64,000 nt of DNA from Stegostoma tigrinum (taxonomy: Eukaryota): the NCBI RefSeq assembly GCF_030684315.1, contig NC_081360.1, positions 28,503,818-28,567,817 of the forward strand, written 5' to 3'. The notes under the pieces were generated by a model that was not told where the DNA came from, ran no database searches, and was given only the letters and a program-made list of their open reading frames with translations. Every line of letters starts with the position of its first letter. The stretch's first letter is position 1. Position numbers and translations under genes: made by a program. Below, piece by piece: positions 2,640 through 62,396 of the stretch.

Positions 2640-3255
2640 GTTTTGGTCTCCTTTTTAGAGAGACGTATTTGCGTGGGAAGTCATTCAGCAAAGGTTCACT
2701 CATCGATTCTTGGAATAAGGGATTTGTCTTACAATTTAAAAATTGAGCAGCTTTGGCCATAATCTGTGAAGCTTAGAAAAAAGAGAGGCGATGTTATTGA
2801 AACATATGAGATTCTGAGAGAGGTTGGTTGATTAATTGTTGAGGAAAGGTTTCTTTTTGGGTGAGTTCAGAATGAGGAGATATATTTTCAAATGAACAGA
2901 TAGTAGGAACTGCCGATGCTGGAGTATCTGAGATAACAACTTGTTACACCTTGTTATTTCTCTTCTATTTTTCAAATGAAGTTGTCTCTCATTGAAGATG
3001 ATGATGAAGAGAAATTTTGTCTCTGAGGGTTGTTAGTGTTTGGAATTAGCTTCCTCAGAGAATGTTGATGATTGAGTCAATAAATATATTGAAAGTTGAG
3101 CTTGAGAGACTTTTGATTGACAAGGGTATTGAGGATGGACAGAAAAGTGGAATTGAGACCATCAGCAGATTAACCATTATCTTGTTGAAAAACAAGACAG
3201 TTTCAATAGATTGGGTGCCTGTATCTACTGCTGTTTCTAATGTTCTTGAGTTTAT
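2640..3255 (+). mobile_element. Degraded CR1 3' end, interrupted by a PLE-derived hairpin
   Basis: Decayed RGD.IETY.IL and ..RVV..WN motifs. Confidence 0.6.
2897..2968. mobile_element. Very short PLE terminal-repeat hairpin insertion
   Basis: AGATAGTAGGAACTGCCGATGCTGGAG.. then inverted CACCTTGTTAT; TSD TTTTCAAATGAA at 2885-2896 and 2969-2980. Confidence 0.75.
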
Positions 3256-5471
3256 GGTTTAAATTATGCAGTTTCAAAATGAACGGAGTAGATTGCCATC
3301 CTGTAATAAGGCAAGTTCATATTGTGAATGAAGGATTGTTGACCTTGCTGTATTTTTTTTTCAGTTTGCAAATACACAGTCCATGAAAGATGTGTTTCCA
3401 AAGAAATTGCATCATGCATAAGCACATACGTAAAATCCAAAAGGAATACTAATGTAAGTGCAATTTTGCCAAATATTTGCAGTGCATGCAGATGTGTTTT
3501 AAACTTCTGAATACTGTAATTCTGAAAATGGAATATTCGTTCATGTATTGGGACTTTTCTCAAAGCATACATTACAATCCCCATGATGAATACTTCTTCA
3601 GCTGTTGTACACAACTCGCCATTAACAAACCTTGAATGCTGATAATCACAATCTCTGTCACTTTTTCACTGGTTATACAAGATTTATTTGTAACTGTCTA
3701 GCATTTGCAAATTAGCTGTGCTATTAAAATCAGTGTTGTTTGAGCATATTTAATATGTATGCCGAGGAAATTATTTTTGGACAGGACCTTCAAAGTCTTA
3801 ACCATGAATCATAATATTTATTGACCTCTGTGGCTTTCAAGGCAGAAGAAAACATATGCAATTCAAAGTATGCTGCCTTTGTGTAGATGTGAGAAGTGGA
3901 AAGTGGTCAGCAAAATAGCATTGGCCCTGATCCCTGATCCCTGAGGCAATGGAAGCTCCTGGGAGCTGATTTATTTTGAAACCCTGAATCACAGATTCAC
4001 AACATTGGAGACCACAGTAGCTCTGTGGAAACCCTTGCTGACGATTCCCTGGTGACCCATCAGTGAGTAAATTTGGGTTGTTGACTCAATACTTGCTGTG
4101 TCTTTCATACTGATTTGTTGATAGTGTCCCTCACAGGGATAAAGCCTAACTGGTAGAAATGCAGTCCTTGCCATTAGAAGAAATGCCATCAAAGGTCATT
4201 AGCACCCCTGCACACTGTTCACTGTGACAATGTTTACCCTCTCTACTTCCTGACATTGTTGACTAACGACTTCTTCCTCCACACAGCTCTCAAAATTGCT
4301 TACCCTCCCACCCAACGCTGATCCACTGTTAAATGCTGCTCAGTTGTCCTAAATCAGACCTTAATAAATCCCTCCTGAACTTATGCTCCAAATCTTCTAC
4401 TTTACACTCATCTCTGACACTGCTCGAACCTCCCTGCACTCCACAAGCCTGCTGCTTCCTCTCCACACCACTCCACTCCACCGCAACCCCCATGCTCTGA
4501 TCATACCTCACCACCATTACCATGCCCCTAGGCATTTCCAACGCCACTGAATCAACTCCAACCTCCCCTTCTTGCCACCTTCCCCACCAGAATTGTGAGA
4601 AAGTGTTGAGCAGGGTCTGGAAGTGGTGACCAGTTTCAGAAATAAGGCAAATAATCAGGAGTACTGAGTAAAATGAGCCATGCAGGATAAGGACTGAGCA
4701 GTGTTGGAGTAATGGGTTGGATAATGGGCTTATTTAAAAAAGGGAAGTTCACTGCACTGAAGACAGAGCTCAAAGGTTTTGTCTTCAGCTCTTGATGTGA
4801 AAGAGGTCATGGGCTCTTTGGAATTGTGCCCAGCACTGGTCCTCTTGTCCTGTCTCATTGTTGGAATCAAGCTGAAGCTGGATTGTAACGTCCTAAGGCT
4901 CCATTGTTAAAATGGAAGGCTGTAGTTTCAGACAGGATTAACAGTGGTTACTCTCACTTCATCAATGGCCAAGAGATTCAGCCCATAGAAACTGCAAAGA
5001 AATAAGGGAAAGCCACCAGATGAGAGCAGTCACATCAGAAATGAAACTGCTGTCATTTTCAGAGAATTGCTCAAGAGGGTGAATGTTCAGTTTGAGATCA
5101 TGATCCCTACCCGAGGGCCCCCACACAACCCCACGTGGACTGATCGATGACAGACCATCTTGGATCTTTGAGCAACTCGAGGTTTTAAAATCAAATCAAG
5201 TACCACTGAAAGTGGTTGTGAATGACTCTTGAAAAGATAGTTGGACCAAAGATTAGCTTATGGTGATGCAATCATTCTGAAAATAATGCCACCTTTGCTT
5301 ATCTGTTGTCACACAATGTAATTTAGCTCCGTATAGAGAAGTTATTGATTTGGGATCTCTTAGTGTGTAATCTGAGTACCCTATTTGATTCATACAAATG
5401 AGCTAACTCTCTAACTAATTTGTCTTATCCATCCTTAAACGTCTTTGTCTAATCCTCTAACTCCTATCAAG

Positions 5472-5588
5472 GTTATGCAACATGTTTGGATGGAAGGAAA
5501 CTCTCCAACTAAGTGTGACCGATGCCGCAAGAGCATTAAATGTTTCCAGAGTCTCACCGGTCTCCATTGTGTTTGGTGCCAAATAACA
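5472..5588 (+). CDS. DGKG: Diacylglycerol kinase (type I, gamma-like) exon, C1b domain first half
   Basis: AAG|GTT...ACA|GTAAGT; 117 nt, phase 0-0; [39 protein letters not shown], the His/Cys pattern of a DGK C1 domain. Confidence 0.93.
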
Positions 5589-6229
5589 GTAAGTACTGAG
5601 GAAATAGCATGCATTTCTTTTCAAAGAATGCTCAAGAATTGCTGAGAAAATAAACGACATTTCACGAGCACTAGAGGGCAGGCTGGTTTCTCAGTGCAGG
5701 CAAAGATGCATTGCCAACTCCTGGTGAAATCTTAGTTAGAAGTGCAGACTTGGAACAGGAGTAGTCACGACCATAAAACAATTAATATTCTTTGTGATTG
5801 TTACTCTTTGCTGCATTAAGATTTTTCAAACTAACAGCATTTTCTATAAAATCCTGACAATTAAAATCAGTTCATTTTAAATGAAGGGAACATAATGATA
5901 CAGGTGATTCCATTTGTTCAGTTAAACTCGTATGTTAAAAGACATGGTTAAAACTGGTTCATTTGGTTTTGAACATTGTGCTGTTCATGAATGGTAAAAT
6001 AATGGCTCTTCAGCGTACAACTCTTCCTGGTGTTGCTGAGATTAATTTTGCCCAAATGCTGTTGCACTGGCCTTCAGTTTGTACTTGCCCATATGCATCC
6101 ATCTGGTGCTTCTACTGCGGTTCCCTTAACAGTAAAGTAAAAGTCCTCTGCATGATGTGGGAGATGAAGTGATGCCCCTTGCTGGCATCATATGAAATGT
6201 TTGCTCAGCATTACTGATCAGGTTTTAGT

Positions 6230-6368
6230 GACCTCGCCGCTCCTGACAAAAGGGGCTGTGCCTTAAAAAGCTTGTGTGCCTTCAAATAAACCAGTTGGAT
6301 TATAACCTGGTGTTGTATGACTTCTGACTTTGTCCATTCCAGTCCAACACTGGCACCTCCACATCATG
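6230..6368 (+). mobile_element. Terminal repeat of a further PLE-type family with decayed hammerhead-like motif
   Basis: CCTGACAAAAGGGGCTGTGCCTTAAAAAGCTTG followed by AATAAACC..TATAACCTGGTGTTG; recognised from memory of shark repeats. Confidence 0.5.
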
Positions 6369-6825
6369 CCCAGGGTTGGAGCATTTGAGCTATAGGGAGA
6401 GTCTGAGTAGGCTGGAGCTGTTTTCCCTGGTGCGTCGGAAGCTGAGGAGTGACCTTACAAAGGCTTATTAAATTATGACGGCCATGGATATGGTAAATGG
6501 CCATAGTATTTTGCCCGGGGTGGGGGGAGTCCAAAACTAGAGGGCATAGGTTTAAGATGAGATGGTAAAGATATGAAAAGGACCTAACGGGCAATGTTTT
6601 CATGCAAAGGAAGGTGCGTGTGTTGAATGAGGTGCCAGAGGAAGTGTTTGGGACAGGTACGATTGCAACACTTAAAAGGCATCTGGATGGGCATATGAAT
6701 GGAAATGGTTTACGGGGATATGGGCCAAATACTGGCAAATGAGGCTAGATTTAGAAAGGATATCTGGTCAGCATGGATGAGTTCAACCAAAGAGTCTCTC
6801 TCTGTGCTATATAGCTCTATGACTC
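6369..6825 (+). mobile_element. CR1 LINE 3' end
   Basis: LE.LSY.E.L..LELFSL..R.LRSDL motif; tail TCTGTGCTATATAGCTCTATGACTC. Confidence 0.8.
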
Positions 6826-7990: not shown

Positions 7991-8120
7991 TTTTCTGAAG
8001 AGGGGCCTCGACCCGAAACGTCAAACTTTCTGGCTCCTCTGATGCTGCTTGGCCTGCTGTTCATCCAGCTTCACACCGTATTATCTCAGATTCACCAGCA
8101 TTGGTAGTTCCTGCTCTATC
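7991..8120 (+). mobile_element. PLE terminal-repeat insertion inside the CR1
   Basis: Same repeat as 415-546; interrupts CR1 after SCLTNL. Confidence 0.8.
7995..8022 (+). ncRNA. Minimal hammerhead ribozyme motif with intact core (sense to DGK pre-mRNA)
   Basis: CUGAAGA-G-GGG(CCUCGA)CCC-GAAAC-GUC, with flanking UUU/AAA able to form helix I. Confidence 0.65.
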
Positions 8121-9225
8121 CACACGGTAGACTGGTTGGCAAGGTTAGACCACATGGAATCAGGGTAACCTAGCCAATTGGATACAAAATTGGCTTGAAG
8201 GTAGGAGACAGAGGGTAGTGGCGAAGGCTTGCATTTTGGACTGGAGGCCTCTGACCAGCAGTGTGCCACAAGGATCGGTGCTGGGTCCACTGCTATTCAT
8301 CATTTATATAAATGATTTGGATGTGAACGTAGGAGGTATGGTTAGTAAGTTTCCAGATGACACTAAAATTTTTGGTACAAGGACAATGAAGTATTTTTTC
8401 AAAGAGATTGTGGTCAATGGATCAACGGCTGAAAAATGGCAGAGGGAGGTCAGTCTAGATATATGCGGGTATTGCATTTTTGTACAACAGACGGGTAGAA
8501 ATTATATAATTAATTGCCGGGCTTTAGTTGGTGTCGTAGAGCAGAGAGACCTACGGTTTCAGGTACATTATTCTTTGAAGTTTGCATCACATAAAGACAG
8601 GGTTGTGAAAAAGATATTTAGAAAACTTGACTTCATTGCTGAATCCTTTGAGTATTGGAGTTAGGAAGCCAGGTTGAGGTTATATAGAACATTGGTGTGG
8701 CCTCTTCTGATTGTCCAGTTCTGGTTGCCCAGTTGAAGGGAGGACATTATTTCACTGGAAAGAGCTCAGAAGAGATTTACCAGGATGTTGCTGCCTAAGG
8801 AAGGTTTGAGTTATAAAGAAATGCTGGATAGACTGGGACTTTTTCCACTGGAGTGTAGGAGATGGAGAGATGACCTTATAAAAGTCTATAAAATCGTAAG
8901 GGTTATAGATAGGGTTAGTGGATGTGTCTTTTCCCTTGAATGGGGGATTTTAAGACTAGGAGCACATTTTTAAGATGAGGAGAGAGATTTAATAAAGACG
9001 TGAGGGGCAAATATTTTACTCAGAGGGCTGTTTGCATATGGAATGCACTTCCTGAGGCCATGGTTACATTGTTTAAAAGATGTTTGGATAAGTGCGTGAT
9101 TGAGTAAGATTTGAAGGGATATGGAGCAGTCAGGTGGGACTAGTTTAGTTTGGATTATATTCAACATGGTCTGATTGGAACAAAGGGTCTATTTCTGTGC
9201 TGTATGACTCTGTCTATGACTATGG

Positions 9226-10527: not shown

Positions 10528-10569
10528 TCTAATACAACACATGGCTCTCTTCTGAGAGGTTTTGGGGAG

Positions 10570-11720: not shown

Positions 11721-11777
11721 TGGTAATGTTTCACACAATCATAATCTCAGAACCATACCTTACTGACAACCCATTGT

Positions 11778-12434: not shown

Positions 12435-15400
12435 AGACTGTAAGACAATAAGACTTAGCTGCAGAATTAGGCCATTTGGTCCAACATCTCATAGAGGAGC
12501 TACACTCTGGTTCAATAAATTTCCACTCATCCCAGTTTTACAGTATCGTTCTGAGGCTGTGCCCATGGGACCTAGTCTCTCCTACTAATGAAACACTTTT
12601 CCACATCCAATCTATCCAGGCCTCTCAGTATTCTAAAAGTTTCAATCACATCACTCCTGATTCCTCCTAAATTCCATCAAATACAGACCCAGAATCCTCA
12701 GTTGCTCCTCATATAACCAGCCTCTCATCCATGGGATCATCCTTGTAAACCTCCTCTGGACCCCCTCCAAGACCAGTACATCTTTTCTTGGATAGAAAGT
12801 TAAAAGCTGCTCACAATGTTCCAAATGCGGTCTGATAAGACCCTTTTACAACCTCAGCAGTTCTCCTCTGCTCTTGTATTCCAGCCCTCTAGAACTCAAT
12901 GCCAACATTGTATTCGCCTTCCTAACTGCCACGTGAAATTATGAATATTAACCTTAAGAGAATACCGAACTAGGACTCCCAAGTCCCTTTATGCCTCAGA
13001 TCTCTCAAGCCTTTACCATTTAGGAAATAGTCTACACTTATTCTTCCTACCAAAGTGTATAACCTCACACTTTCCAACACTGTATTCCATCTTCTGTTTC
13101 TTTGCCTGTTCTCCTTACCTGTCCGTGTCCTTCTACAGACTCCTGCTTCCTCAAAACTACTTGTTCCTCCACCTATCTTTGTGTCATTTGCTTTCATTTC
13201 TTACATCCAGATCAGTAACGTGTAACAAGTAGTTGTGATCCCAACACTGATCCCTACCGAACTCCACTAGCCATCAGCTGCCATCCTGAAAAAGTTGCTC
13301 TTATCCCGTGGTCTGTCATCTAGCAGTCACCCAATCCTCTTTCCTAGCTAGTACCTTGCCGTTAATATAGTGGGTTTATTTAGCAGCCTCCTGTATGGCA
13401 CCTTGTCAAAAGTCTTCTAGAAATTTATAGATCACATCTACTCTCTGTCCTTTGTCTAACTTGCTCATTACCTCCTCAAAGAATTCTAACATTTTTCAGG
13501 GATGACCTCCCCTTGTTGAAGCATTATTTTACCATGTGCTTCTAAGTGCTCCACAATCTTATCCTTAATAATAAACTGTAAAATCTTGCAAATGACTGAG
13601 GTCAAGTTAACAGACCTACAGTTTCATATTTTCTGTATCCCACCCTTCTTAAACGGGGATGTTACATTAGCCATTTTGCAATTCTCTGAGATTCCAGTGA
13701 TTCTTGAAAAATCGCTACCAATGCCTCTACAATCTCCTCAGCTATGTCCTTTGCAATTCTGGGATGTAGTCCATCTGGTGCAGGTGATTTACCCAACTTC
13801 AAACCTTTCATCTTCCGCAGCACCATCTCCTTAGTGATATCCACTAAATTCACTTCTGCCTCAGACTCTTTTGAAGTTCTGGTTTGCTGCTGGTGAAATC
13901 TGATACAAAGCATCTGTTCAGTTTCTGATTACTGCTTGGAGGCCTGTACATAACTCACATCAGGGTCGTTTTCCTTTGCGGTTCCTTGTTTCTACCCATG
14001 CGGATTTTATAACTTTCAACCCTTTATCACTTCTTGCTATCAATTTAATGTAATTTCTTACTAACAAGGCAATCCCACCCCCTCTGTCCATTTGGTAGAG
14101 CATGTATTCTTGGATATTTAGTTCCCAGTCCTGAACCCTTTGCAGCCATAGATCATAGAACATAGAACATAGAAAAGTACAGCACAATACAGGCCCTTCG
14201 GCCCACGATGTTGTGCCGCGGAATAATCCTAATCCAAAAATAAAATAACTTAACCTACATTCCCCTCAATTCACTGCTGTCCATGTGCATGTCCAGCAGT
14301 CGCTTAAATGTCACTAATGACTCAGCTTCCATGACTACCACTAGTAAACTATTCCATGCGTTCACAACTCCCTGGGTGAAGAACCTCCCTCTGACATCTC
14401 CTCTCTACCTTCCTCCTAACACCTTAAAACTATGACCCCTCGTGTCAGTCAATCCTGCCCTGGGGAAAGGTCTCTGGCTATCGATTCTATCCATGCCTCT
14501 CATTACCTTGTACACCTCAATCAGGTCACCTCTCTTCCTCCTTCTCTCCAGAGAGAAAAGTCCAAGCTCAGTCAACCCCTCCTTGTAAGACAAGCCCTCC
14601 AGTCCAGGCAGCATCCTGGTAAACCTCCTTTGCACCCTCTCCAAAGCCTCCACATCTTTCCTATAATAGGGCGACCAGAACTGGACACAATATTCCAAGT
14701 GTGGTCTCACCAGGGTTTTGTAGAGCTGCAGCATAACCTCGCGGCTCTTAAACCCGATCCCCCTGTTAATGAAAGCCAAAACACCATATACTTTCTTAAC
14801 AACCTTATCCACCTGGGTGGCAACTTTGAGGGAGCTATGCACTTGAACACCAAGATCCCGCTGTTCTTCCACACTGCCGAGAATCCTGCCTTTAATCCTA
14901 TATTCAGCATTTTTAAGTTCGACCTTCCAAAATGCATCACTTTGCATTTATCCAGGTTGAACTCCATCTGCCATTTCTCAGCTCAGCTCTGCATTCTGTC
15001 AATGTCTCGCTGAAGCCTGCAATAGCCCTCGATACTATCAACGGCACCCCCAACCTTTGTGTCATCAGCAAACATACTAACCCACCCCTCAACCTCCTCA
15101 TCCAAGTCATTTATAAAAACTACAAAGAGCAGAGGCCCAAGAACAGAGCCCTGTGGGACACGACTCAGCACTGACCTCCAGGCAGAATACTTACCATCTA
15201 CAAGCACTCTCTGCCTCTTGCCAGCCAACCAATTCTGAATCCAGACAGCCAAATCACCCTGTATCCCATACCTCCTGACTTTATGAATGAGCCTGCCGTG
15301 GGGAACCTTATCAAATGCTTTGCTGAAGTCCATTAACACCACATCCACTGTTCGACCCTCGTCAACCTGTCTCGTGACTTCCTCAAAGAACTCAATAAGA

Positions 15401-17900
15401 TTGGTAAGGCATGACCTGCCCCCCTCAAAGCCATGCTGACTCCCTTTAATCATGCTATGTTTTTCCAAATAGTCATAAATCCTATCCCTCAGAATTCTTT
15501 CAAAACCTTGCTGACCACAGACGTAAGACTGACTGGTCTGTAGTTTCCAGGGATTTCCCTATTCCCTTTCTTGAAAAGAACAACAACATTTGCCTCCCTC
15601 CAATCTTCCAGTACGACTCCTGTGGAGAGTGAGGAAGCAAAGATCTTGAGCAGCGGCTTAGCAACCTCCTTTCACGCTTCCCTGAGCAACCTAGGATAAA
15701 TCTGGTCTGGCCCTGGGGACTTATCAATCTTAATGTTTGCCAAAATTTCCAGCACAGCAACTTCCTCAATCTCGATCTGTTCAAGCCTGTTTCCCTGCTC
15801 CTCAAAGTTCTCATTCACAACAAGGTCCCTTTCCTTAGTGAAAACCGAGGCAAGAAACTCATTTAGGCCTTCGCATATCTGCTCAGACTCCACGCACAAG
15901 TTCCGTACACTATCCCTGATCGGCCTTACCTTCTCCCTGCTCATTCTCTTATTCTTCACGTATGAGTAAAATGCCTTCGGGTTCTCCCTAATCACTCCTG
16001 CCAAGCCTTTCTTGTCTCCCCCTCCTGGCCCCCCTCAGTCCACTTTTGAGCTCCTTCCGAGCAAGCCTGTCATCCTCTGAAGCTGTGCTATACCAATGCT
16101 TCCTCCACCTTACGTAAACTGCCTTTTTCTGTTTGACAAGAAGCACCTCTGTACCCGTCATCCAAGGCTCCTTAATCTTACCCCTTCTTACCTGTCTCAG
16201 AGGAACAAATTTATGCATCACTCGCAACAATTGCTCCTAAAACAGCCTCCACATGTCTGTTGTGCTCTTTCTGTGGAACAATTGCTCCCAATCTGTACTT
16301 CCCAACTCCTGTCTGATAGCGTCATAGTTTCCTTTTCCCCAGTTAAATATCTTCCCCTGGTAACTGCTCCTATCCCTTTTCATGGCTATGGTAAATGTGA
16401 GGCTGTTGTGGTCACTGTCGCCAAAGTGTTCTCCCACCACGAGATCTGACACCTGTCCTGGCTCATTGCCGAGTACCAAATCCAAAATGGCCTCCCCCCT
16501 CATTAGCCTGTCCGCATACTAAGTAAGGAAACCCTCCTGAGCACACCTGACAAAAACAGCTCCATCCAAACCATCTTCACTAAGGAGGTTCCAATCAATA
16601 TTGGGAAAGTTGAAGTCACCCATAACAACAAACCTGCTACGTTTGCACTTTTCAACAATCTGCTGGCCTATGAGTTCTTCGATCTCCCTACTGCTATTTG
16701 GGGGTCTGTAGAAAACCTCCAATGAGGTGACTGCTCCCTTGCTGTTCCTAACTTCCACCCATACTGACTCAGTCAACAAACCTTCCTCGGCAACCTCAGA
16801 CCATACCACCTCAATAGACGAGCCCTCATCAAAAGTTCTTGCAGCCACCGTTATACTGTCCTTGACCAACAAAGCCACACCCCTCCCTCTTTTACCACTT
16901 TCCCTGACCTTAATGAAAGATCTAAACCCTGGAACCTGCAACATCCATTCCCCTGACCCTGCTCTATCCATGTCTCCGAAATGGCCACAACATCGAAGTC
17001 CCAGGTACCTATCCAAGCTGCAATCTCACCTGCCTTATTCCGGATACTCCTGACGTTAAAGTTGACACACTTCAACCCAGCTTGCTGTCTGCCAGCACAC
17101 TCCTGTGACAGTGAGGTCTTGTCCATGTCCTCCCTATGCTAATCCTCCTGTGTGCTAGGACTACACCTCAGTTTCCCATCCCCCTTCTGAGCTAGTTTAA
17201 ATCCACCTGAATAGCACTAGCAAATTTCCCACCAAGGATATTAGTGCCCCTCTGGTTCAAGTGGAGAGTGTCCTGTTTGTAGAGGTCCCACCTTCCCCAG
17301 AATAGGCCACAATTGTCCATGTACCTGAAGCCCTCCCTCTTGCACCATCCCTGCAGCCATGTGTTCAGCTGATATCTCTCCCTGCTCTTTGCCTCGCTAT
17401 CACATGGCACGGGTAACAAACCAGAGATAACCACTCTATTTGTTCTAGGTCTCAACTTCCACCCTAGCTCCCTGAAATCCTGCCTAACATCCCTATCACT
17501 CTTTCTACCTCTGTCATTGATGCCTATGTGGACCACGACTTGGGGCTGGTTCACCCTCTCCCTTCAGGACCCCAAAGACACGATCCGAGACATCACGGAC
17601 CACGCCTCTGTGATACCCACAAAACTGTACCTGCCAGTTTCAATCTGCATTTCAGCTCATTTACCTTGTTTCTTTCACTGTGCACATTTAAATACAACAC
17701 CCTCAGTCCTGCATTGATCATTCCCTTTCTCATAACTATCCCTGTATCTGCTGTGCATATAGTTAGATTCCTGACTCCTTCCATAGTCTTTTTTCTATTA
17801 CTTGTTCTGAAAGCTTTGATAACCAGTGCTAGGGCCTCCCCACTTTTAGCTTTTTCTGAGTTTGCAGTCAACAAACTCACCTCCCACACCAACCCATCTT
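12435..17900 (-). mobile_element. Older, internally deleted CR1 (12435-14149 and ~17598-17900) hosting a younger CR1
   Basis: ORFs 12970-13197, 13662-13913 (KSPAPDGLHPRI), 13960-14187 (GGGIALLV), 17593-17892 (LRVLYLNVHS); host sequence joins across the insertion (GCAGCCA..CCACGCCTCTG). Confidence 0.8.
14150..17597 (-). mobile_element. Near full-length young CR1 LINE: ORF1 C-terminal SGNH esterase-like domain and frameshifted ORF2 (APE+RT)
   Basis: 17554-17192 VVVHIGIND..VVISGLLP..DTLHLN..G; 17126-16237 APE (FNVRSI, ISETW, YRPP, GDFN, SDH); 16004-14405 RT (DFSKAFDKV, PQGSVLGP, FADD); (TTCTATG)n tail ~14150-14173. Confidence 0.95.
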
Positions 17901-20960: not shown

Positions 20961-21728
20961 ATGATCTGCTGTTTTTGACTGTTAATTGGCATTAATTTCT
21001 TCAGTAGACTACAGTACCATAGCTGGGATATTTCTGTATGCTGTGCTCATTCCTTCAATTGTTGTGAAGGGAATCTAATTGTCTGAAGAATATTATTTGT
21101 GATGCTGAAACCTTTGGGAACTTTTCACAACAATGACTGCAAACACTTCACTCTTGCCTTTTATCAATGATAAATTGGGCTCCTTCATCATTAAGGCTTG
21201 GGAAGGTTTTGGATTAGCCACTAGCTGCTAGATATTTGATTGTCTACCTCCATCCATGATATGGCATGACTGCCTAGCCTTAATCTAACCTGTTGGCTGT
21301 AGGATTGCTTTGCTGTTTCCGTTGAAAAACTTTTCACGCTGTAGCTGCAAAGCATTATCTACTGGAGTGACAATTTTTGATAAATAAGATGCTACTGTCC
21401 CTCTAAGAAGACATTATATTTTGTACAGATTTGAACAACGTTGAGTATGAGTTTGTGCTGGTGATGTGCCAGGTGCATAGGCGTATGTGCCTGTGACTAA
21501 CTATTTGAATGGAACAGCCTTCAGTTGCTCTTATAAGGCAGAGTATGGACTATACCTAACCAACCCAACCTTGCAAAATGTCTGCTATAGGTGTTGTTCA
21601 ATGAATGACAGCATTTGCTGAACAACACTGAGTATGCCAATAAGTTACACTAGAAACCATTTAAGATATTGGTTGAGCTTTATGTGGCTCAATCATGCTT
21701 GGTAGAGATGATGTACATTCATATGTAT

Positions 21729-21901
21729 CAGAGATAATAGGAACTGCAGATGCTGGAGAATCCAAGATAATGAAGTGTGAAGCTGGATGAACACAGCAGG
21801 CCAACCTCCTTCAGAGGGGTCGAGGCCCGAAACGTCAGCTTTTGTGCTCCTGAGATGTTGCTTGGCCTGCTGTGTTCATCCAGCTTCACACTTTATTATC
21901 C
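21729..21901. mobile_element. PLE terminal-repeat hairpin insertion
   Basis: Inverted arms; TSD TACATTCATATG at 21714-21725 and 21902-21913. Confidence 0.85.
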
Positions 21902-22389
21902 TACATTCATATGCAAGAGCCTGTTCTCTGTAAATGAAAAGAATTTGGTCAAACCTTGCATCTTTTTTAAATTATTCAGAATTTTGAAGAGACTTAAGTT
22001 CACCATTCTTTTCTTTATAACAATGTCATGGCCAAGGAGAGTTTGCTTGCCAACCAACCGACACCCCTTCCTCCTGTAATATAACTTGTGATCATATGAA
22101 ATTGGCATTGTTGCATTTCATAATTGATGAGTATAAGACGAGAAGCTTTGACAACACGTCTGTCTTTCCAGAAGTATCCAAATTCTATCTATCAAGTAAC
22201 GTTGGGATGTTTATTTTGTGGTGACTTTTATTGTTGCAGTTTGGCCAAAAGGTGCAATGACTGTGGTAACTGAAGGATGGTAATGCAGAAGTGAATAGGA
22301 CATTGATGTTGCAGTTTCTGACATTGCACTTCGGTTACAATATGTTGACAAGAGCTAAGGCTTCTGCATCATTTATCTATATTGCCCCT

Positions 22390-29610: not shown

Positions 29611-29780
29611 CTAAAAAATTTGTTTCTGTCACTCAGGATTTTCACAGAATACAAGATGTCATTTATTTTTTCATTTCTGTCTTCTTAGTGCTTTGTGTTG
29701 TTAGAAATAAATTAGTTAATTAATCATCATATCTTCCTTTTAAACACTATATATTTCTTCCTGTGTATTTGTTTTTCGAA

Positions 29781-30010
29781 CAAACACAGAATGCTAGTGA
29801 AATTCAGCAGGTCTGGCATCATCCATGGAGAGAGAAACAGAGTTAATGCTTCAGGTCCGATATGACTCATCTTCAGACGATAAAAAGTCTTAGTGAACTC
29901 GCACCGTTACCTCTGTTTCTCTGTCCATGGATGTTGCTGGGCCTGCTGCGTTTCACCATTATTCTAAATTTGTTTCAGATTTCCAGCATTTGCAGTACTT
30001 GGCTTATATT
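29781..30010. mobile_element. Old PLE terminal-repeat hairpin (second-family related)
   Basis: Arms CAGCAGG..CATCCATGGA.AGAGAAACAGAG / CTCTGTTTCTCT.TCCATGGATG..CCTGCTG. Confidence 0.7.
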
Positions 30011-30475
30011 TGATTTCAGTTTAAGGTACAGTTTGGGTATTGCAGATAAATATGTATCTTGCCAAAAAACGACTCTTAAAAGTATAGAGTCTGTGGACAG
30101 GTTTGAATATTTTTGGCACTCTACAATAGATCTGTCTCAATTGCTTTATTTTGATCTATAGATCTCCAATAGTGCATTATTCAAGTAAATGGAGAAAACT
30201 GGCAAGAGCAGACCTTTTGCAAAGATGATAAAGCTATGTTTGATAAAAACCAGAAGAATTTGAAACATGTATCTTAAAAGTGGCAGGGATGATTGAACAG
30301 TTTACACATTCTGAAGTTTAAACTACAGACTGGAATGAAACAATTTTCTGCAAAATTCTAAATAAATGATCTTAATTCATTCTCGTACCACAAATGCCTA
30401 AAAAGTTCCAGGACATTTGCCTGGTGTGTCCAGCAAAATGTAGAGATGCTAGAACTGGACATGTTTAATTTTTCT

Positions 30476-30734
30476 AAGATAATAAAATGTGAGGCTGGAT
30501 GAACACAGCAGGCCCAGCAGCATCTCAGGAGCACAAAAGCTGACGTTTCGGGCCTAGACCCTTCATCTAGGCCCAAAACGTCAGCTTTTGTGCTCCTGAG
30601 ATGCTGCTGAGGATGAAGGGTCTAGGCCCGAAACGTCAGCTTTTGTGCTCCTGAGATGATGCTGGGCCTGCTGTGTTCATCCAGCCTCACATTTTATTAT
30701 CTTGAATTCACCAGCATCTGCAGTTCCCATTATC
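30476..30734. mobile_element. Young PLE terminal-repeat hairpin next to a DGK exon acceptor
   Basis: Near-perfect ~90-nt inverted arms plus a third partial copy in the loop; exact 17-bp TSD ACATGTTTAATTTTTCT at 30459-30475 and 30735-30751. Confidence 0.92.
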
Positions 30735-30772
30735 ACATGTTTAATTTTTCTGGTTGGTTTTCTGTTTTGAAG

Positions 30773-32079: not shown

Positions 32080-33480
32080 GACTGGAATCTTTCATTAGGA
32101 ATGCAGTGAGTGAATGCTAGAACATGGGATGGCTGTCTACAGATTTGTGAAGTGAGGATCAGCCCTGGATATATTAGTTGAATTTTCAAGAGGTCACTAG
32201 CCTGATGGACAATGGAATATATGGGGATGTTGTCTTTGTGGACTTCCACGCAGCATTAGTAAACATTCCACAGAAGGATGTTAGGAAAAAAAGTTAAAAA
32301 GCACCTGATGAAAGTAACCTTGTGACATGAGTTGGTGTTTGGCTGATAGATGAAAGTGAAGAGTAAACATAAAGGAAATGTACACTGGCATTATGTGAGA
32401 GAGATAATGGGAACTGCAGATGCTGGAGAATTCGAGATAACAAAGTGTGGAGCTGGATGAACACAGCAGGTTGTGCTCCTAAGATGCTGCTTGGCCTGCT
32501 GTGTTCATCCAGCTCCACACTTTGTTACTGGTAGTATGCGTTGTTGCCAAGGGATCTATAGCAGTACATTATACTGATATTAATGCCTTGGATAAATTAT
32601 TTAAAATTGGTCAGTCCAAGTTCCCATAAAGTTAGTACATTTAGCACATTGTATGGGTAGGAACAGGAAATTACTAACTGTCAGTGGGAAAACTGTGACA
32701 GATAATGTTCAACATGAAGTGAAAGATCATCCACATTTGACAGCAATTTTGAATTACAGTGGAAATCTGTGAAGAGGGAAAGGGATTTGGGTGTCCAAAT
32801 CAATAAAGCACTGTATAGCTGCAAAGGATAATCCAAAAGACTAAGGGAATATTGACTTTTATCTGGGAGGCCTGGAAAAGAAAGAGAAGAGCTTGATGGT
32901 TATATTGTACGAAGCATTAGTTAGATACATTCAGTATATTGTAGTCAGTTTTAGGAGCTCCAGGAGAGATACATTGACCTTAGAGTACACAGAGACACCA
33001 GAATGAAGACTGGAAGATTTTAGATAACCAGGATAGGTTGCATGGTGTAAAGGAAGTGTTACAAATGGCATAACACATACATATCAATGTTTAAGTACCT
33101 TTACATATTCTTTAGAGACTTTATTCAACAAAAATTGTTCATTCTGGTCTGAAACTTCTGTTTGACACAGCATTAACAACCCATTGGGGATAGCATTTTA
33201 ATTTCCAGTATACGTTGTGAATATCTTGGCCTAAATTTAAAATATTGCTCCTTGTTCGAGACTCATGCAAACCAACACACAAGTCTCTCAGAGGGATGCT
33301 GAGCAAGCGGAGGAAATTGGGCTGGTTCCTACTCCATGATTTACACACAAGATTGAACCATACCAGATTAAGCAAGATGTGCCATGCAGTGGACAGATAA
33401 AACTGATGTTGTGATTCATGTCAGCTACAATCTCATTGAATTTTGGAGCAGGTTTATGGGGCTGAATGACTTAGCACTAC
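32080..33480 (+). mobile_element. Highly degraded CR1 RT and 3' end
   Basis: Decayed SCL.NL.EFF.EVT..D motif. Confidence 0.55.
32398..32526. mobile_element. PLE terminal-repeat hairpin lacking the ribozyme core
   Basis: Perfect arm TAACAAAGTGTGGAGCTGGATGAACACAGCAGG and its reverse complement; degenerate TSD ACTGGCATTATGTG / ACTGGTAGTATGCG. Confidence 0.85.
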
Positions 33481-33541: not shown

Positions 33542-33597
33542 GTGCTCCTGAGATGTTGCTTGGCCTGCTGTGTTCATCCAGCCTCACATTTTATTAT
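33542..33597 (+). mobile_element. Single-arm PLE terminal-repeat insertion
   Basis: TSD CTTCTTCTTAAAT at 33529-33541 and 33598-33610. Confidence 0.85.
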
Positions 33598-34369
33598 CTT
33601 CTTCTTAAATCTGTCTTCTCCACATTCCCTTTACCAAATTTAAGAAGCTTGTGAACTTCTTCAGCTACTCTTACACGCTCTACATCCCTGCTCAGAAATC
33701 ATCCCACCAAAGAGATCCACTTATGCACCAATGATCACAGTTCCAGTAAGCTGCTGATCACTTGGGTGTCCTTCCTGACCATCATTCCAGTGAGCTGAAT
33801 TGGTAAATGTCTAATCTGGTATTCTCCCTCTCCTTGTAAACAGTCATTACCACGTTCCTCCTTAAAGAAGAAACCTACTCTTAACCCCACTAGCCTCCCA
33901 ATCATGTTTCACTTTCTGCCATATCACTGAACTGACCCCAACCAACATCAAAAATTTCATACTAACTGAATGTGTTGCATTATTTATCCTTACCCTGTAT
34001 GGCTTGCCTGCAGTTTTGACATATTGACTACATCATCCTCGGCCAAAACTTCTCCACAGCTATCCATTTCAATGGTACTACTCTTTCTTTGCTCTGCTGT
34101 TAACTACCTGACCGAAGGCAAGATATCTCTAGCAACTGTTTACCACACCATTTGAAGTCCCCAGAGTATCCATTTATGAGTCCCTTCCTCTAACCTATCT
34201 ACATTCTGGTCCATTGTGTTTTGGGTTAAGTTGAAGGGGAAACTTTGGAAATATACTTCACAGACCCACTTGGTGAACAGAGCCTTCAGCAACAAACAAA
34301 TATATGGAACAAATCAGGAAGAGAGCAGCTAGTCCATCCATCCAGTCTTGCAATAAACCTGACGTATGA

Positions 34370-38534: not shown

Positions 38535-39365
38535 TGGACAAGCCATTTTACTGGAGCTACACTGGTAGGTCAGAGCCTGGGAATTCTGCAGCAAGTAACT
38601 CACCTGACTCCACAAAGCCAAAGCCTGTTTACCATCTACAAGGCACATGGCAGGAGTATAAGAGAATATTTTATATTTGCCTAAATAAGTATAGCCTTAA
38701 CAACATTCAAGGAGCTCAAGGATAAGGTGACAAAATGTGGAGCTGGATGAACACAACAGGCCAAGCAGCATCTCAGGAGCACAAAAGCTGACGTTTCAGG
38801 CCTAGACCCTTCTTCAGAGAGGCCTAGGCCTGAACGTCAGCTTTTGTGCTCCTGAGATGCTACTTGGCCTGCTGTGTTCATCCGGCTTCACACTTTGTTA
38901 TCTTGGATTCTCCAGCAGCTGCAGTTTCCATTATCAAGGATAAGGTGACCTGTTTGATTAGTACCCATCTGATACCTTCAACATTAATTCCCTCCACGAC
39001 CAACACAGTGGCTGCAATGTGTACTGTATACAAATATGCACTGCAGCATCTCAAACAGGCCCCTCTGACAGCGTGCTTCCAAATCTGTGACCTTGAACAC
39101 CAAAAGGACAAAATCAGCAGATTCCTGGAAAGACCACCATCTGCAAGTTCCCTTTCAGGCCCACAGGACCTTGTCATGGAATTTTATTGCTATTCCTATA
39201 GTATCAATGGTCTAAAGACCTGGAGGTTTCCATCTAACAGTATTATAGGTGTACCTGCACAAAATGGATTGCAATGATTCATTACTGCCACCTCCTTAGA
39301 GGTGATTAGGGCTAAGCATTTAATGCTGGCTTAGCCAGTTGTGCCCACATTCATGAATTAATAAA
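38535..39365 (+). mobile_element. LINE 3' end, split by a PLE hairpin
   Basis: GQSLGIL..TIYKA motif; 3' end GCCCACATTCATGAATTAATAAAA. Confidence 0.65.
38732..38935. mobile_element. PLE terminal-repeat hairpin insertion
   Basis: TSD TCAAGGATAAGGTGAC at 38716-38731 and 38934-38949; near-intact hammerhead on - strand 38790-38817. Confidence 0.9.
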
Positions 39366-49077: not shown

Positions 49078-49234
49078 GTAAATGAGAAAATGACGTTATC
49101 AGATCAGAAGAGACACTCATCTAGTATATTTTTATTTGTGGTACTTAATATCTGATGGCTTCTGTGAAGTATTTGAGAAGCAAGCAATAAATACAGCTGT
49201 AATTATGGACTACTTTAAACTGCATGTAGATTGG

Positions 49235-52299: not shown

Positions 52300-53450
52300 T
52301 GCAACCAAATGTATTGACCATTATAAGGTACTAAAAGACAAATAAAGTGAGAAAATTAAAATAACATGAGGTTATAGAAGTCAATAGAAATTACCAGAAA
52401 AACTAATACAACTAAAGGTTGGACAATGGTGGATGTATTGGTTTAGAACTTCCAGAATTCCTTGGATTCCAGAATATTTGGAAGTTTCTAAACCTATCAT
52501 TTCAGAAAGATCAGAGAGGGAATATAGGGAAATGTAGGCCAGTCAACTTGATACCTAGAGTGGGGAGAATTCCTGAATTTGTTTTTAAGGATGTAGTAAT
52601 AAGGACTTTGGAAAATCACTGTACGACGAGGTAGTGTCAACATTATTTTAGAGAAAGGTTAATTGTACTTTAAAAATTCATTAAAGGTTTTTGTAGTTCT
52701 AACCAACAGGCTAGATAGATAGAGATAGTGGGAACTGTCGATGCTGGAGAATCTGAGATAACACGGTGTGAAGATGGATGAACACAGCAGGCCACGCAGC
52801 ATCAGAGGAGCAGGAAAGCTGATGTTTTGAGTTGAGACCCTTCTTCAGAAAAATTTTTCCAGCTTCACATCGTGTTATGTTAGGCTAGATAGATGGATTT
52901 CCAGAATAGATTCAAATACATGCCAGACATTAGATTGTTGGATAATATTCAAGTTTGTGGAATTGAGGGTAGTGTATTAGAATGTACTGAGAATTGGTTT
53001 ACAGTGAGAACAGAAATAAACAGTTATTTTTGTTATTGGGAGTATAATTAGTAGAGTTATGAAAGGGTCAGTGCTTAGACTTCTACCATTTGCAATCTGT
53101 ATCAGTGAGTTAGATGAGAGGAATATTGTGGCTTTGTTGTTTCCTCTAAAGGCTAAAACCTCAGAATAAATTTTCAGGCTTTTAAGAATGAAATATAGAG
53201 AAAATTCTTTGATTTGAAGTTTGTGACTATTTGGAATTCTGTATTCAGGTGTGCTGCGAATGCTAAGTCAATGAATATATTCAGGACAGAAGTCTTTACA
53301 TTTTTGGGCACAAAGGAAATCAAAAGATGTGGAGATAGTGTGGGGGGAAGAAACAGATTGCTGTAGATGTTGAGCTGTGATGGTACTGAATGGCAGACCA
53401 GACTAGGTGGGCCATGTGACCAGTATGCTTTCTCCTATTTCTTATATCCT
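52300..53450 (+). mobile_element. Degraded CR1
   Basis: ORF 52419-52634 (GKCRPVNL) and CR1 3' UTR. Confidence 0.6.
52721..52881. mobile_element. PLE terminal-repeat asymmetric hairpin
   Basis: TSD AGGCTAGATAGAT at 52708-52720 and 52882-52894. Confidence 0.85.
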
Positions 53451-54090: not shown

Positions 54091-54110
54091 GAGCTTGTGT
54101 CCTTATCATA

Positions 54111-54453
54111 GATAACAAAGTGTGAAGCTGGATGAACACAGCAGGCCAAACAGCATCTCAGGAGCACAAAAGCTGACGTTTCGGGCCTAGACCCTTCATC
54201 AGAGAGGGCGATGGGTTGAGGGTTCTGAAATAAATAGAGAGAGAGGGGGAGGCAGACCGAAGATAGATAGAGGAGAAGATAGGTGGAGAGAGTTGCAGTG
54301 GGAGAGAGATTCCCTGAGGTTGGTCCGGAGGGAGGAGGGTAACTTCTTCAGGTTAGGCATCCCTGGAAGAGGCTTTGCAGTGAGGTTAAAATTGTGATCA
54401 GAGATCATGGGAACTGCAGATGCTGGAGAATCCAAGATAACAAAGTGTGAAGC
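54111..54453 (-). mobile_element. Internally deleted mini-PLE with direct terminal repeats
   Basis: GATAACAAAGTGTGAAGCT at both ends; contains internal segment, 3' UTR piece homologous to 330-415, and hammerhead. Confidence 0.8.
54175..54202 (-). ncRNA. Minimal hammerhead ribozyme motif with intact core
   Basis: CUGAUGA-A-GGG(UCUAGG)CCC-GAAAC-GUC; CU/AG helix I start. Confidence 0.7.
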
Positions 54454-55057
54454 TTTGCTTTTACTGAGGTCTTAATTTGCTGTCACAACTTCAAGTATTT
54501 GAGTGTCTGAAAAGTGTGTTGGTATACCCTAAGATCAGAAAAGGTGTTCTATCTATGCAGCTTCTTAAACATGAGCTGGAAAGATTATCCTGATGAGTTA
54601 GTCATCAATGTATTTAATTTGGAGCCAGAAAGACACAAAATTATTTGCAAAATTAGCTAAATATTTATAATTGCATTTATACCTAATCTGGTTCCTTTGG
54701 TGAAAAGTGTGAATTTGGGTGTTATTTTCAATGCAATGTTTGAGGCAGTAACAAAAGGTCATCTTCCTTCATCTATGCGAAAGACACTGTTAATCTTTTG
54801 CGTGTCCTCAAGGTTTCAGTTCAACGAAAGCGAAACCAACATGAAACCTATGAGAAGTAATCTTTGTCCATCCATAGATTAATTTTGCTAAAGTGAACTG
54901 GTATCATGGTCAGTGGCAGAGAGGGGACATTATTGGGCACAGAAAGGCCAGCATGTCAGTAACCTGACATGATCCTACTTTTACTGAGGGTACTTTGAAG
55001 ATGAGCAAACAGAAACCAACAGTGCTGTCGTGTCCGTAACTTGAATATATTAAAAGT

Positions 55058-55266
55058 GAAGAGATAATGGGAACTGCAGATGCCACAGAGTCCAAGATAA
55101 CAAAGTGTGAAGCTGGATGAACACAGCAGGCCAAGCAGCATCTCAGGAGCACAAAAGCTGATGTTTCAGACCTAGACCCCTCTGAAGGGTCTAGGCCCAA
55201 AACGTCAGCTTTTGTGCTCCTGAGATGCTGCTTGGCCTGCTGTGTTCATCCAGCTTCACACTTTGT
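55058..55266. mobile_element. PLE terminal-repeat hairpin insertion
   Basis: ~85-nt inverted arms meeting in the ribozyme; TSD TATATTAAAAGT at 55046-55057 and 55267-55278. Confidence 0.9.
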
Positions 55267-55309
55267 TATATTAAAAGTCAATACAGTTTCATTCATGCAA
55301 CTGTTAAAT

Positions 55310-58600: not shown

Positions 58601-59574
58601 TGTCTGTTATAATTTATATGCCCACTGCAATTAATCTGAATGCAAAAGTGAACGCTTGACAGCGTAAACAAACCCATGAAAAAACACATTCCCAGAGTAA
58701 AGTGCATTAAAACTGTTGCAGAAATAAAGAAGTAAAACTCTAATGGCTAACGTCAAACAGGTCATTAGAGAACTCTGCTTGATCAAGGCAGAATTCTGAT
58801 TTCCAGTGTGCACAGTTCATCTAGACAATCGACATGCTGTGGCAATCCCTTATTTGCATGTTAGGAATTGCAGTGCAGGACCACATTTAAAATATTTTCC
58901 ACTGGTCATGAGAACATTAGCATGACTTTATTTTTTGCACCATAGTCAGGAATTGACTGTGATTTGGGCACAGATCCATGAGCCTAATTCTTGAGGTTCA
59001 TTGATTTCCTGCAAGGCTTGTACACTGCTAGTATTGCTTTGCAAAGCTTACTTGTGTTTATTAATGTTCTCAATTCTCTGTTATATTTTGGCAAGGAGCA
59101 ATGTAATAAGAGGTGCGCATATGCTAAAACAAAGCCTGTGTTCTTCCTACATGTTAAGTATCTATCACTGCAGTTTAGGTTGTGAAATTTACATATATAT
59201 ATTTCAATCAAATTTATTTCTGAGTTTGGATTTTTGTACTTTGAACTAATAGCATATGCGTGCTCTGAGGGGCTAAAGGGTGTATCCGGTGATTAATTTG
59301 TAAGTATTTCTGCAGCCGTAATAGTCTTCTAAAACAGTTTGAGACAGAGCCTCCATAAACTAATGGATTTTTGTTTACACTGCAAATTAACAAAGTACAC
59401 AGGGTAGTGTAATTGACTTTATGGTGAGTGATTCTGGGTTTTTTTTTAAACTTAGAGGGCAACACCCACAACTTGGAGAGAAACCTTTCAGTTTTAGCTT
59501 GGGCGGAGTTCTGCAATGTTCTTAGCTAAAGATGGATGCAGAAAGTAATTGTTCCTATCATAGGAAGAGTATAC

Positions 59575-59782
59575 ATAAACAGAAGTTGCTGGAAAAGCAC
59601 AGCAGGTCTGACAGCATCTGTGAAGAGAAATCAGAGCTAACATTTCGGGTCCAGTGATGCTTCCTCAGATTGGACCTGAAACATTAACTGATTTCTCTTC
59701 ACAGATGCAGCCAGACCTGAGTTTTTCCAGCAAATCCTATTTTTGTCTCTGATTTACAGCGTCCAGAGTTCTTTTGGTTTTT
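59575..59782. mobile_element. Second-family PLE terminal-repeat hairpin
   Basis: Arms GCTGGAAAA..AGGTCTG..GCATCTGTGAAGAGAAATCAG and its inverse; junction at CTGAGGA core. Confidence 0.85.
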
Positions 59783-60314
59783 ATGGGAAGTATGTAGTTT
59801 ATGTTTGCTTTTTAAAAAAATTACCTCAGACTAAGCAGTCTATAATAGTTCCAGATTCGAGGTGTTTGAGTAAAATGCAGAAGGACTTATTTGAAGCAGT
59901 GAAAATTTTACATTTGGGTATATGAAGGTGCTGGCATAGGCTGAAAGATTGTCTGGACTGGGAGCTTTTATCACAGTTAGGCTAAACGTATTGAAATGAT
60001 AGAGGAAGCGATTCTCTGCAGTGTGAGGACTGCAACGAGTGTTTGTGGGATTGACTTGATTATATTTTTACTGTGTTTTGAAATGTTTTAAGTGTGTGCT
60101 CTTTATAAATATCTTTATTTATTCCACTGTTTCTGCATTTCTTTTCCATAATAAACTCCACTGTCAACCAAAATCTGCCATATTGCATGCTTATGTTGCA
60201 ATGAGCATCCGCCTCACTAAAACCAAAAATGAAGATCTTTCAAGCCAAAGTTCTGTCTGAGCTCTAGTTCATCGAATAATAGCATCAGTTGGTGTCATTA
60301 ATGGAATCCAAAAA

Positions 60315-60490
60315 GCCAAACCCTATACCTCTGTTGTTGAGGATATATGTTGCTTATTTTGAAATCCTTTTGTATGACCGATAGCCACAGGGAAGGTGCT
60401 GGAAGACTGGAGGTTCGCTAATGTGGTGCCACTATTTAAGAAAGGTGGTAAGGAAAAGTTAGCGAGCTATAGACCGGTGAGCCTGACATT
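60315..60490 (+). mobile_element. CR1 RT fragment
   Basis: EDWR.ANVVPLFKKGGKE..SYRPVSLT, similar to 7720-7845. Confidence 0.8.
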
Positions 60491-61414
60491 GAATCATCCA
60501 GATGGATTTAGCATGCAACATGTACTTTAAGTATTGTTCCTAAAGTATCTCACTGTTGAGATATAATATAATACAGGTAGAGTGTGTTGTTAGCTCAAAT
60601 TTGACAAACTGTGTTTGAAAATGTTATCATGATTGCACAGGGCCACTACAGTTCTTCAGTACAGATGTAAACTGCTGAGATCTCGTGTTCATACTATATA
60701 TTACTTGTAGAAATATTACAGTACAAGTGTACTAGTGACTATGATTGCATGACTGCCATGAATATTTTAATCATTTGCAGAACATCTTTTAAACAAACCT
60801 CAAGACACAATGCATCACTCAGCTGTGATTATTTGAAGCTCTTCTGGTTATTTTTCATAGCACATCTTGTAAAGATTGAGATAAAAGGGAAAAAAAAGAT
60901 ATGTAGGCCTTCACAGAATATGTTAAATGAGTCTTTGAACATCAACAATCCTTAAGACACTGCCTGGGCCCTGCAGAGAGTAAAGGGTTTGTTTTAATTG
61001 TCTTTCAAATGCCTTTTCTTTTGACTAAATCTGTGCTCATTTGTAAGACTGTGTTTCTGTAGAATTCTTTCGAACTGCATAAAGTCTGCCCACTATGATG
61101 TGTCCCTGGAGTCAATTCATTTCATTCCTTTAACCAAGTTGCATTTATATAAAATCTTTACCATGGTCAAATTTCATGAAGGCTGTTGATCAAATACTAA
61201 ATTGACTGAGATCCAATCAGCTAAAATTAAACCAAGCTAATTTTCTAATCTCTGGGAAACATTTATGTTTTGGTATTTATGGAGAATATATGAATTGTTA
61301 TTAATATTTGAGACATTAGTATGTATTCAAAATAATTTTTCATGTTCTGGATTGTTAGCATTCCATACTCAAAATCTTTATAACAGTGTAATAATTTGTG
61401 GGGTTTTTTTTTAG

Positions 61415-61500
61415 GTTAAACACCTTTCGTGACATACCTGATTTCCGAATCCTGGCGTGTGGAGGAGATGGGACTGTAGGATGGATCCTGGATTGTATTG
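61415..61500 (+). CDS. DGKG: Diacylglycerol kinase exon with ATP-binding GGDG motif
   Basis: TTTTTTTTTAG|GTTA...ATTG|GTATTT; 86 nt, phase 2-1; [28 protein letters not shown]. Confidence 0.95.
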
Positions 61501-61913
61501 GTATTTCCAATATACAGTAAAAGATTAATGTGAAATACTATTGTATTTTGTTTTTTTAATTCTATTTTTCACTCAAACTTCTCTTAACAGTGTAAAAACA
61601 ATGCTTTTGTTTAACCATAGTACATTTTGTCTGGCATATTAAGTAACATTGTTAATTGGCCATTTTTGAAACTACTTTGATACCCAGTACATTGTAAAGA
61701 CAGTACCACTCCGCATATGTAGCTCTAAACAGAGAAGCTAGTAGATGTTTCATTGTAAAAGTCTAAATGTGTATTTAGGATTCTCACTCATGTTATAGTT
61801 CGAGATAGTTGGTTTATAACCTGCCATTGTGGTGAAGAGCGGTCTATTTTTCAGCCTGCTCTTCCAGCTTTCAGTTTTACCTGAACTAAACCTATCTCTT
61901 GTCATTATTACAG

Positions 61914-62003
61914 ATAAAATCAATCTAGCAAAACACCCACCTGTAGCTGTATTACCATTGGGTACTGGAAATGATCTGGCTAGATGTCTGAGGTGGGGAG
62001 GAG
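61914..62003 (+). CDS. DGKG: Diacylglycerol kinase exon with LPLGTGNDL motif
   Basis: TTACAG|ATAAA...GGAG|GTAAGA; 90 nt, phase 1-1; (D)[44 protein letters not shown] and AVLPLG favour gamma over beta (recalled paralog sequences). Confidence 0.95.
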
Positions 62004-62250
62004 GTAAGAGTGAAACCCAATATCTACTGTAGATCCAATAAAATGTTTTGCCATTAAGCATGGTTCTGGTGGCTCTGGCTATGTAAACAAAATGTGTGGT
62101 CCAAACTTAAGCAAATGCGTTTCTCCAATTAAAAATTCCCAATAATGAAAATGCCTCTATTATTTTGCTCTAACAAGTAACAATCTATTCATATTGAGGA
62201 GTGTGCATTGCTGTTAAGGAGAGAGCTTGCTCCTTTCATGTTTTGCAAAC

Positions 62251-62396
62251 ATAACATATTGTGGAGCTGGAGGAACACAGAGGGCCAGTTAGCATCAGAG
62301 GAGGGAGAAGGCTGACGTATCGTGGTCAGGACCCTTCTTCCTCCTGTCCCACTGAGTTATGTCTGACTACAGCATCGACAATTCTTACTACCTCTG
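62251..62396. mobile_element. Old PLE terminal-repeat insertion with inverted end
   Basis: Decayed left arm through GACG..ACCCTTCTTC, then inverted tail. Confidence 0.6.

Follow-up and report, generated by a model that had tools for sequence, protein, structure and literature searches.

Head-to-head Penelope-like copies in the window

The window analyzed here is a 64,000-nucleotide (nt) stretch of the genome of Stegostoma tigrinum (assembly GCF_030684315.1, contig NC_081360.1, positions 28,503,818 to 28,567,817 of the forward strand) that contains ten hairpin copies of a Penelope-like retroelement. Each copy consists of two 5′-truncated arms arranged head-to-head, with the 3′ ends of the element facing outward. 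One arm ends at a short terminus, S, which reads ..TT(G/A)TTATC, and the other at a long terminus, L, located 33 to 36 nt beyond. A first-pass annotation had described this arrangement for the ten copies, and it was confirmed in all ten. The second arms at 2897, 52721, and 62251 are tiny or decayed and were read by eye, being undetected by BLAST. The copies are listed below by window position, with no strand assigned.

2897 to 2968: head-to-head copy of family 1; long arm 2898-2939, antisense; short arm about 2946-2957, sense, tiny and read by eye; 12-nt duplication 2885-2896 / 2969-2980
21726 to 21901: family-1 copy; left long arm to −38; right short arm to −86; 12-nt duplication 21714-21725 / 21902-21913
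29779 to 30010: family-2 copy; left short arm; right long arm; weak duplication
30476 to 30734: family-1 copy; left short arm 30476-30567; extra sense piece 30566-30608; right long arm 30612-30734; 17-nt duplication 30459-30475 / 30735-30751
32398 to 32527: family-1 copy; left long arm to −34; right short arm to −58; decayed duplication
38732 to 38933: family-1 copy; left short arm; right long arm; 16-nt duplication 38716-38731 / 38934-38949
52721 to 52881: older family-1 copy; left long arm as far as −92; short arm at about 52858-52878, sense, by eye; 13-nt duplication 52708-52720 / 52882-52894
55061 to 55266: family-1 copy; left long arm and right short arm, each to about −86; 15-nt duplication 55046-55060 / 55267-55281
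59573 to 59784: family-2 copy; left short arm; right long arm; no duplication found
62248 to 62397: decayed copy; left short arm 75% identical to the reference; right long arm decayed, by eye; weak duplication

Negative positions are counted from S, which was set to 0; L then falls at about +33 to +40. Target duplications that are exact or contain one mismatch, 12 to 17 nt in length, flank 6 of the 10 copies. They are weak at 29781, 32398, and 62251, and the search around the copy at 59575 found none. The copies at 30476 and 32398 are true insertions, because each is absent from a contig of another organism: in the contig that lacks the first, position 30426 is joined to 30735 with 31 nt between, and in the contig that lacks the second, from a different organism, 32387 is joined to 32529. 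The family-2 reference was built by competitive assignment and was seeded by two of the window copies, which therefore fit it by construction.

The element and its landmarks

Judged by its motifs, the element behind these repeats is an endonuclease-bearing Penelope-like element of Neptune/Nematis type. It has just one open reading frame (ORF) with a reverse transcriptase, whose DKG motif and YIDD core were read in natural copies, and the frame is open over 678 codons in copies L258 and L259. The Pfam model RVT_1 matched an ORF fragment with an E value of 1.1e-5, under its curated cut-off. An endonuclease motif is discernible downstream of the reverse transcriptase, where the GIY-YIG match (E value of 0.015) was likewise under the cut-off. 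Natural copies carry a C-X4-C-X2-C linker, which fits the CX2-5CXXC linker ahead of the endonuclease that defines the Neptune/Nematis clades (PMC8557442). Partial tandems with pseudo-long terminal repeats (pseudo-LTRs) and inverted 5′-truncated copies are both present, as in endonuclease-bearing Penelope-like elements. Three outside homologues of the N-terminal region of the ORF were found, all in carpet sharks. One whale-shark protein, P0001, is annotated as acid-phosphatase-like and contains this region at 87% identity; it is probably a gene model fused to a transposon.

Hammerhead core motifs are seen in the pseudo-LTR and constitute a predicted ribozyme, with the core beginning at −91 and the predicted cut between −64 and −63. 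The core contains a short self-complementary stem, as is typical of dimer-type hammerheads. An Rfam scan of the window returned no hammerhead family and only microRNA-like hairpin matches. The tail between S and L measures 33 to 36 nt in family 1 and about 40 nt in family 2, and folding of this region gave ordinary stability (z = −0.07). Copy depth along the reference is halved just past S and collapses past L. Across the 3.2-Gb host genome, exact patterns recovered no fewer than 57,337 short hairpins, along with 212,389 exact matches to the arms.

Pairing of one long and one short arm

A sample of 1.464 Mb, comprising the window and further regions, was chosen without regard to these repeats. 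It contained 220 clusters, of which 100 were head-to-head, 117 single-direction, and 3 tail-to-tail. Among the head-to-head clusters, 74 were long+short, 3 long+long, and 5 short+short, and 18 had an uncallable end. Every copy with both a target duplication and two callable ends was long+short (58/58; 0.5^58 under independence), as were all 55 additional duplication-bounded copies chosen on inner-arm markers alone. Two of the three copies of a segmental repeat on C14, as well as duplications under 10 nt, were dropped before counting. This repeat (C14:30033000-30089000, L186-L195) is a tandem of three copies of about 24 to 25 kb, each with the same insertions. Single arms ended at L in 17 cases and at S in 24. 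For family 2, 30 distinct pairs were counted by eye: 22 were long+short and one was short+short, none was long+long, one was ambiguous, and the remaining 6 were uncallable. The asymmetry noted for this family in the first-pass annotation also stands, with a tail of about 40 nt.

Genome-wide counts agreed with the sample. The 57,337 short hairpins bear 45,748 tails, or 0.80 tail per hairpin, which rises to 0.94 once marker decay is corrected (68/80). Long+long patterns numbered 1,055, compared to 27,077 long+any; if the arms were independent, about 11,100 would be expected after correction for marker decay (73/113 versus 89/113). The earlier remark that no long+long or short+short copy was seen holds for the 58 duplication-bounded copies but not as an absolute. 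Of the three long+long clusters in the sample, one represents two nested insertions, another unites an arm of 94% identity with one of 78%, and the third lacks a duplication; the few short+short copies, L244 among them, also lack a duplication. The first 15 loci with genome-wide long+long patterns were inspected, and none proved to be a long+long copy bounded by a target duplication. Six were compound copies with outer ends S and L (L196, L198, L201, L202, L208, and L209), one had L and a shortened end, three had inverted-duplicated flanks, and five were unresolved. Overall, the long+short rule is real, general, and sharply quantified, within a known family.

At L208:1297-1770, the S arm reaches the RNA start and then runs on into inverted sequence copied from the right flank (about 95 nt) and from the long arm. 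This is a jump onto target DNA, which may also explain the apparent long+long patterns with inverted flanks (L200, L205, and L206).

Fixed outer ends and the target site

Outer ends are confined to narrow windows, S at about −8 to +7 and L at about +30 to +43. Target duplications are 10 to 19 nt long (median 14, n = 113). The flank bias is alike on both duplication edges, with A at −7 (67% and 62%) and at −3 (51% and 48%) over a background of 28%, which is the pattern that a single nuclease would leave if it cut the two strands in the same way. For Poseidon PAc of the anole, studied in vitro, the tail is delimited by two internal start sites, cutting and extension take place on each target strand, the start site shows no strand preference, a dimer is predicted, and ribozyme cleavage is dispensable (PMC11167929). 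The evidence for priming is the fixed position of both ends together with their match to these in vitro start sites. Microhomology at S and L is about 2 nt, compared to a null of 0.7 to 0.9; it was rejected as a mark of priming, because the unprimed 5′ junctions of single-arm copies reach the same level (1.9 versus 2.1).

Central junctions were then compared among 91 copies chosen without regard to the junction, 11 of 102 copies being left out, and any one junction was common to at most two copies. Such diversity refutes the idea that a few master hairpins spread as a unit resembling a miniature inverted-repeat transposable element (MITE), an explanation to which we give almost no credence. 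One junction does recur, in 19 loci picked for their likeness to the 30476 copy, although its tail lies on either arm (9 versus 10). Duplication length is also variable and the ends are unequal, whereas equal terminal inverted repeats, a fixed duplication length, and a shared interior would characterize a MITE. Together, the narrow S and L windows, the common flank bias, the unshared junctions, and the in vitro starts (PMC11167929) make priming from both target ends at two defined sites well supported, as the first-pass annotation had proposed. None of the contrary observations that it had named (random arm ends, frequent equal-end pairs, and MITE-like spread through a common junction) describes these data.

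Inner arm ends and central junctions

Arms meet near the ribozyme in 34 of 58 copies; in the others, an arm extends up to 3.5 kb into the ORF, and the earlier description of arms meeting at or near the ribozyme therefore applies to the former group only. Inner ends of short arms pile up at the 5′ edge of the ribozyme (84/182 at −96 to −83), whereas few lie at the GUC cut at −63 (8/182). The long copies L252 and L257, which contain the ORF start, likewise begin at −93. Because arms stop mainly where these ORF-start copies also begin, short arms likely end by run-off at the 5′ start of the RNA, placed at about −95 from copy ends alone. Run-off accounts for the ends better than the stalling of complementary DNA (cDNA) near the ribozyme that had been suggested earlier. 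Both copies continue as far as −93, where they switch to a position inside the ORF, so that tandems are built from template jumps. Three-armed copies were also seen (L002, L003, and window 30566-30608), with an extra ribozyme-spanning piece of 40 to 50 nt between the arms.

Genome-wide, 3,699 arm ends lie at the cut site, compared to 761 and 980 at two neighboring positions. In the first 100 rows of cut-site ends, 44 were perfect folds at an AGCT palindrome, and the excess is about two- to threefold without them. Cut-site ends thus form a minor class with modest over-use, which may or may not reflect cleavage. Roughly 800 hairpins fold exactly at the AGCT just past the ribozyme cut, as extrapolated from 22 pairs in 100 rows. 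These are consistent with two cDNAs running off cleaved RNA and then annealing, or with palindrome-driven joining.

Inverted, tailed insertions have been attributed to self-priming or fold-back, in which a hairpin forms as an intermediate and is then resolved by the endonuclease through cuts staggered by 33 nt (PMC3846280, PMC8557442). If a hairpin stem were cut with such a stagger, strict long+short pairs would likewise result, and some junctions are palindromic, as in the 22 AGCT-folded pairs. The longer arm would, however, be fixed in such an intermediate. After 11 complex copies of 113 were left out, the short arm reached further 5′ in 54 of 102 pairs and the long arm in 28, with differences of up to kilobases. 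Since either arm can be the longer one, fold-back is largely refuted, and we consider it very unlikely. Fold-back of an S-primed cDNA would moreover produce short+short copies, and in vitro, copying of sense RNA begins at the tail boundaries (PMC11167929). Only 7 of 71 young junctions have inverted microhomology of at least 2 nt; most are blunt or contain 1 to 14 extra nt.

A probable single RNA template for both arms

Our preferred reading, held with some confidence, is that both 3′ overhangs of a staggered target cut prime on one RNA, one at S and the other at L. A putative protein dimer would hold the RNA, each reverse transcriptase being placed at one site, and the L-primed enzyme would read through S while displacing the S-primed cDNA. 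Priming in the 5′ repeat of the RNA would give short hairpins that stop where the RNA begins (about −95), and priming in the 3′ repeat would give long ones. The two cDNA 3′ ends would be joined through end-joining or a template jump, and single-arm copies would arise when one cDNA is lost. As one RNA offers one S and one L per repeat, this arrangement would also explain why equal-end pairs are excluded.

Several comparisons between arms bear on the number of templates. Length class was concordant in 47 of 48 simple arm pairs and, within one subfamily, in 19 of 19, where 9.3 discordant pairs were expected. At most diagnostic non-CpG sites, discordance was 1 to 6 per 41 to 96 pairs, near the 4.3% background, with 8 to 47 expected. 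Both arms had rare variants in common 36 times, compared to 3.7 after permutation. The 24 long-arm pairs had a median closeness rank of 4%, and in all 24 the arms were closer to each other than to the median other arm. Three copies (C3:37778, L209, and L227) have the same private deletion on both arms. The common length class, variants, and private deletions favor a single RNA over a pair held together by ribozyme dimerization.

The first-pass annotation had suggested the latter, that is, two RNAs held by the dimeric hammerhead, a proposal left unsupported by these comparisons and by the dispensability of cleavage in vitro (PMC11167929). More broadly, each cDNA could have its own RNA, perhaps paired through the dimer-type hammerhead, with an asymmetry that forces S on one and L on the other. 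The self-complementary stem in the core would suit this arrangement, clearly mixed haplotypes occur in two or three of about 100 pairs, and free read-through of S by long arms requires no displacement if the templates are separate. Against it, a symmetric pair would offer no ground for barring long+long or short+short copies, both arms have the cap near −96 in common as well as length class and private deletions, and ribozyme mutants insert normally in vitro (PMC11167929). We judge two RNAs unlikely.

Other observations weigh against a single template. A variant at −37 in a young subfamily was discordant in 6 of 52 pairs, more than mutation predicts and fewer than the roughly 17 expected for free pairing, and this discordance counts in favor of two RNAs. 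Sites −14 and −48 were also more discordant (11/96 and 9/67), and two further length-discordant copies were found among 10 complex ones. Long arms showed no clear collision stop at S when the first 100 of 1,147 matches were read by eye: about 26 stopped at +10 to +1, 22 at 0 to −10, 17 at −11 to −20, and 19 at −21 to −30. Without a sharp stop at S, the one-RNA reading needs efficient strand displacement. The long arm is the one reaching further 5′ in the 28 of 102 pairs given above, and the template jumps in L252 and L257 mean that second templates do participate. Gene conversion, or a pair of RNAs with the same source locus, could also account for shared variants.

A single RNA could alternatively be used sequentially and without a dimer, the first nick priming at S and the resulting hybrid hiding S, so that the second nick is left with L. 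Occlusion would account for the lack of short+short copies, the scheme fits all the one-template data, and short arms are more often the further 5′ (54 versus 28). Single arms ending at L are, however, nearly as frequent as those ending at S, and each L-only copy must have lost its S cDNA. The narrow duplication length also speaks against it, as does an anole enzyme that cuts both strands and is a predicted dimer (PMC11167929); we find the sequential scheme rather improbable. Overall, priming of both cDNAs on one RNA, held by a putative dimer, is the best reading.

Other copies and features of the window

Two single-direction copies in the window end at S.

54110 to 54454, minus strand: partial tandem with its end at S; an internal deletion fuses the tail and the start of the ORF to the 3′ untranslated region (3′ UTR); hammerhead core intact at 54175-54202
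33542 to 33600, plus strand: single-arm copy ending at S; 13-nt duplication

Internally deleted partial tandems of the former kind keep the element to about +140 to +190 past S (65 to 110 nt of ORF) and then continue into the 3′ UTR; besides window 54110-54454, they include L196, L201, L207, L209, L227, and the C3 blocks 37778 and 42878. The retained stretch may mark where, downstream of the start sites, protein binding is required. Decayed reverse transcriptase fragments of long interspersed nuclear elements (LINEs), presumably of CR1/L2 type as named from motifs, lie at 8149-8664 and 14405-16034.

Relation to known systems and implications

LINE-1 twin priming, attributed to Ostertag and Kazazian (2001), is said to prime both target 3′ ends on one RNA and to yield a head-to-head inversion with a target duplication. 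Its second primer reportedly sits at a variable internal site, so that the arms do not overlap. In contrast, both sites here are fixed at a spacing of 33 to 40 nt, the two arms are copied from the same sequence, and this form makes up about half of the copies. The copies do not fit twin priming of the LINE-1 type: the arms overlap, both ends are fixed, and long arms read through S.

Parts of the present picture are already known from the literature, namely the one-sided tail of inverted pseudo-LTR insertions (PMC3846280, PMC8557442) and, in vitro, the pair of start sites and the extension of both strands (PMC11167929). The former sources treat a tail of 30 to 40 bp as optional and explain it by endonuclease resolution, and they trace the head-to-head form to self-priming with an antisense template. 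In this genome, a tail on exactly one arm is near-obligate, as measured over about 57,000 hairpins of one family and checked in a second. Strands of PAc were sequenced separately, and the available part of that report does not describe whether both sites are used together on a single target (PMC11167929). The shark element further differs from PAc in its CX4CXXC linker of Neptune/Nematis type and in its junction microhomology of about 2 nt. For D. virilis, a 34-bp repeat and an internal start were confirmed, the start being unmapped to the ribozyme (PMC2377424). Searches of open-licence papers yielded no statement of near-obligate pairing, or of Penelope twin priming on one RNA.

Coupled two-ended priming might also be the normal route of Penelope-like elements, which we advance tentatively. 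A dimer would cut the strands about 12 to 14 nt apart and start two cDNAs on one RNA, each at its own fixed site, the tail would reflect the distance between active sites along that RNA, and single-arm, inverted, and tandem copies would be outcomes of one intermediate without a classical second-strand step.

The route to inverted, tailed Penelope-like insertions has been called undefined (PMC8557442). Near-obligate long+short pairing ties the one-sided tail to the two in vitro start sites in one testable model and argues against the published self-priming explanation. The hairpins, at least 57,337 in number, and the 212,389 arm matches are also a large source of DNA palindromes and of potential double-stranded RNA in this genome.

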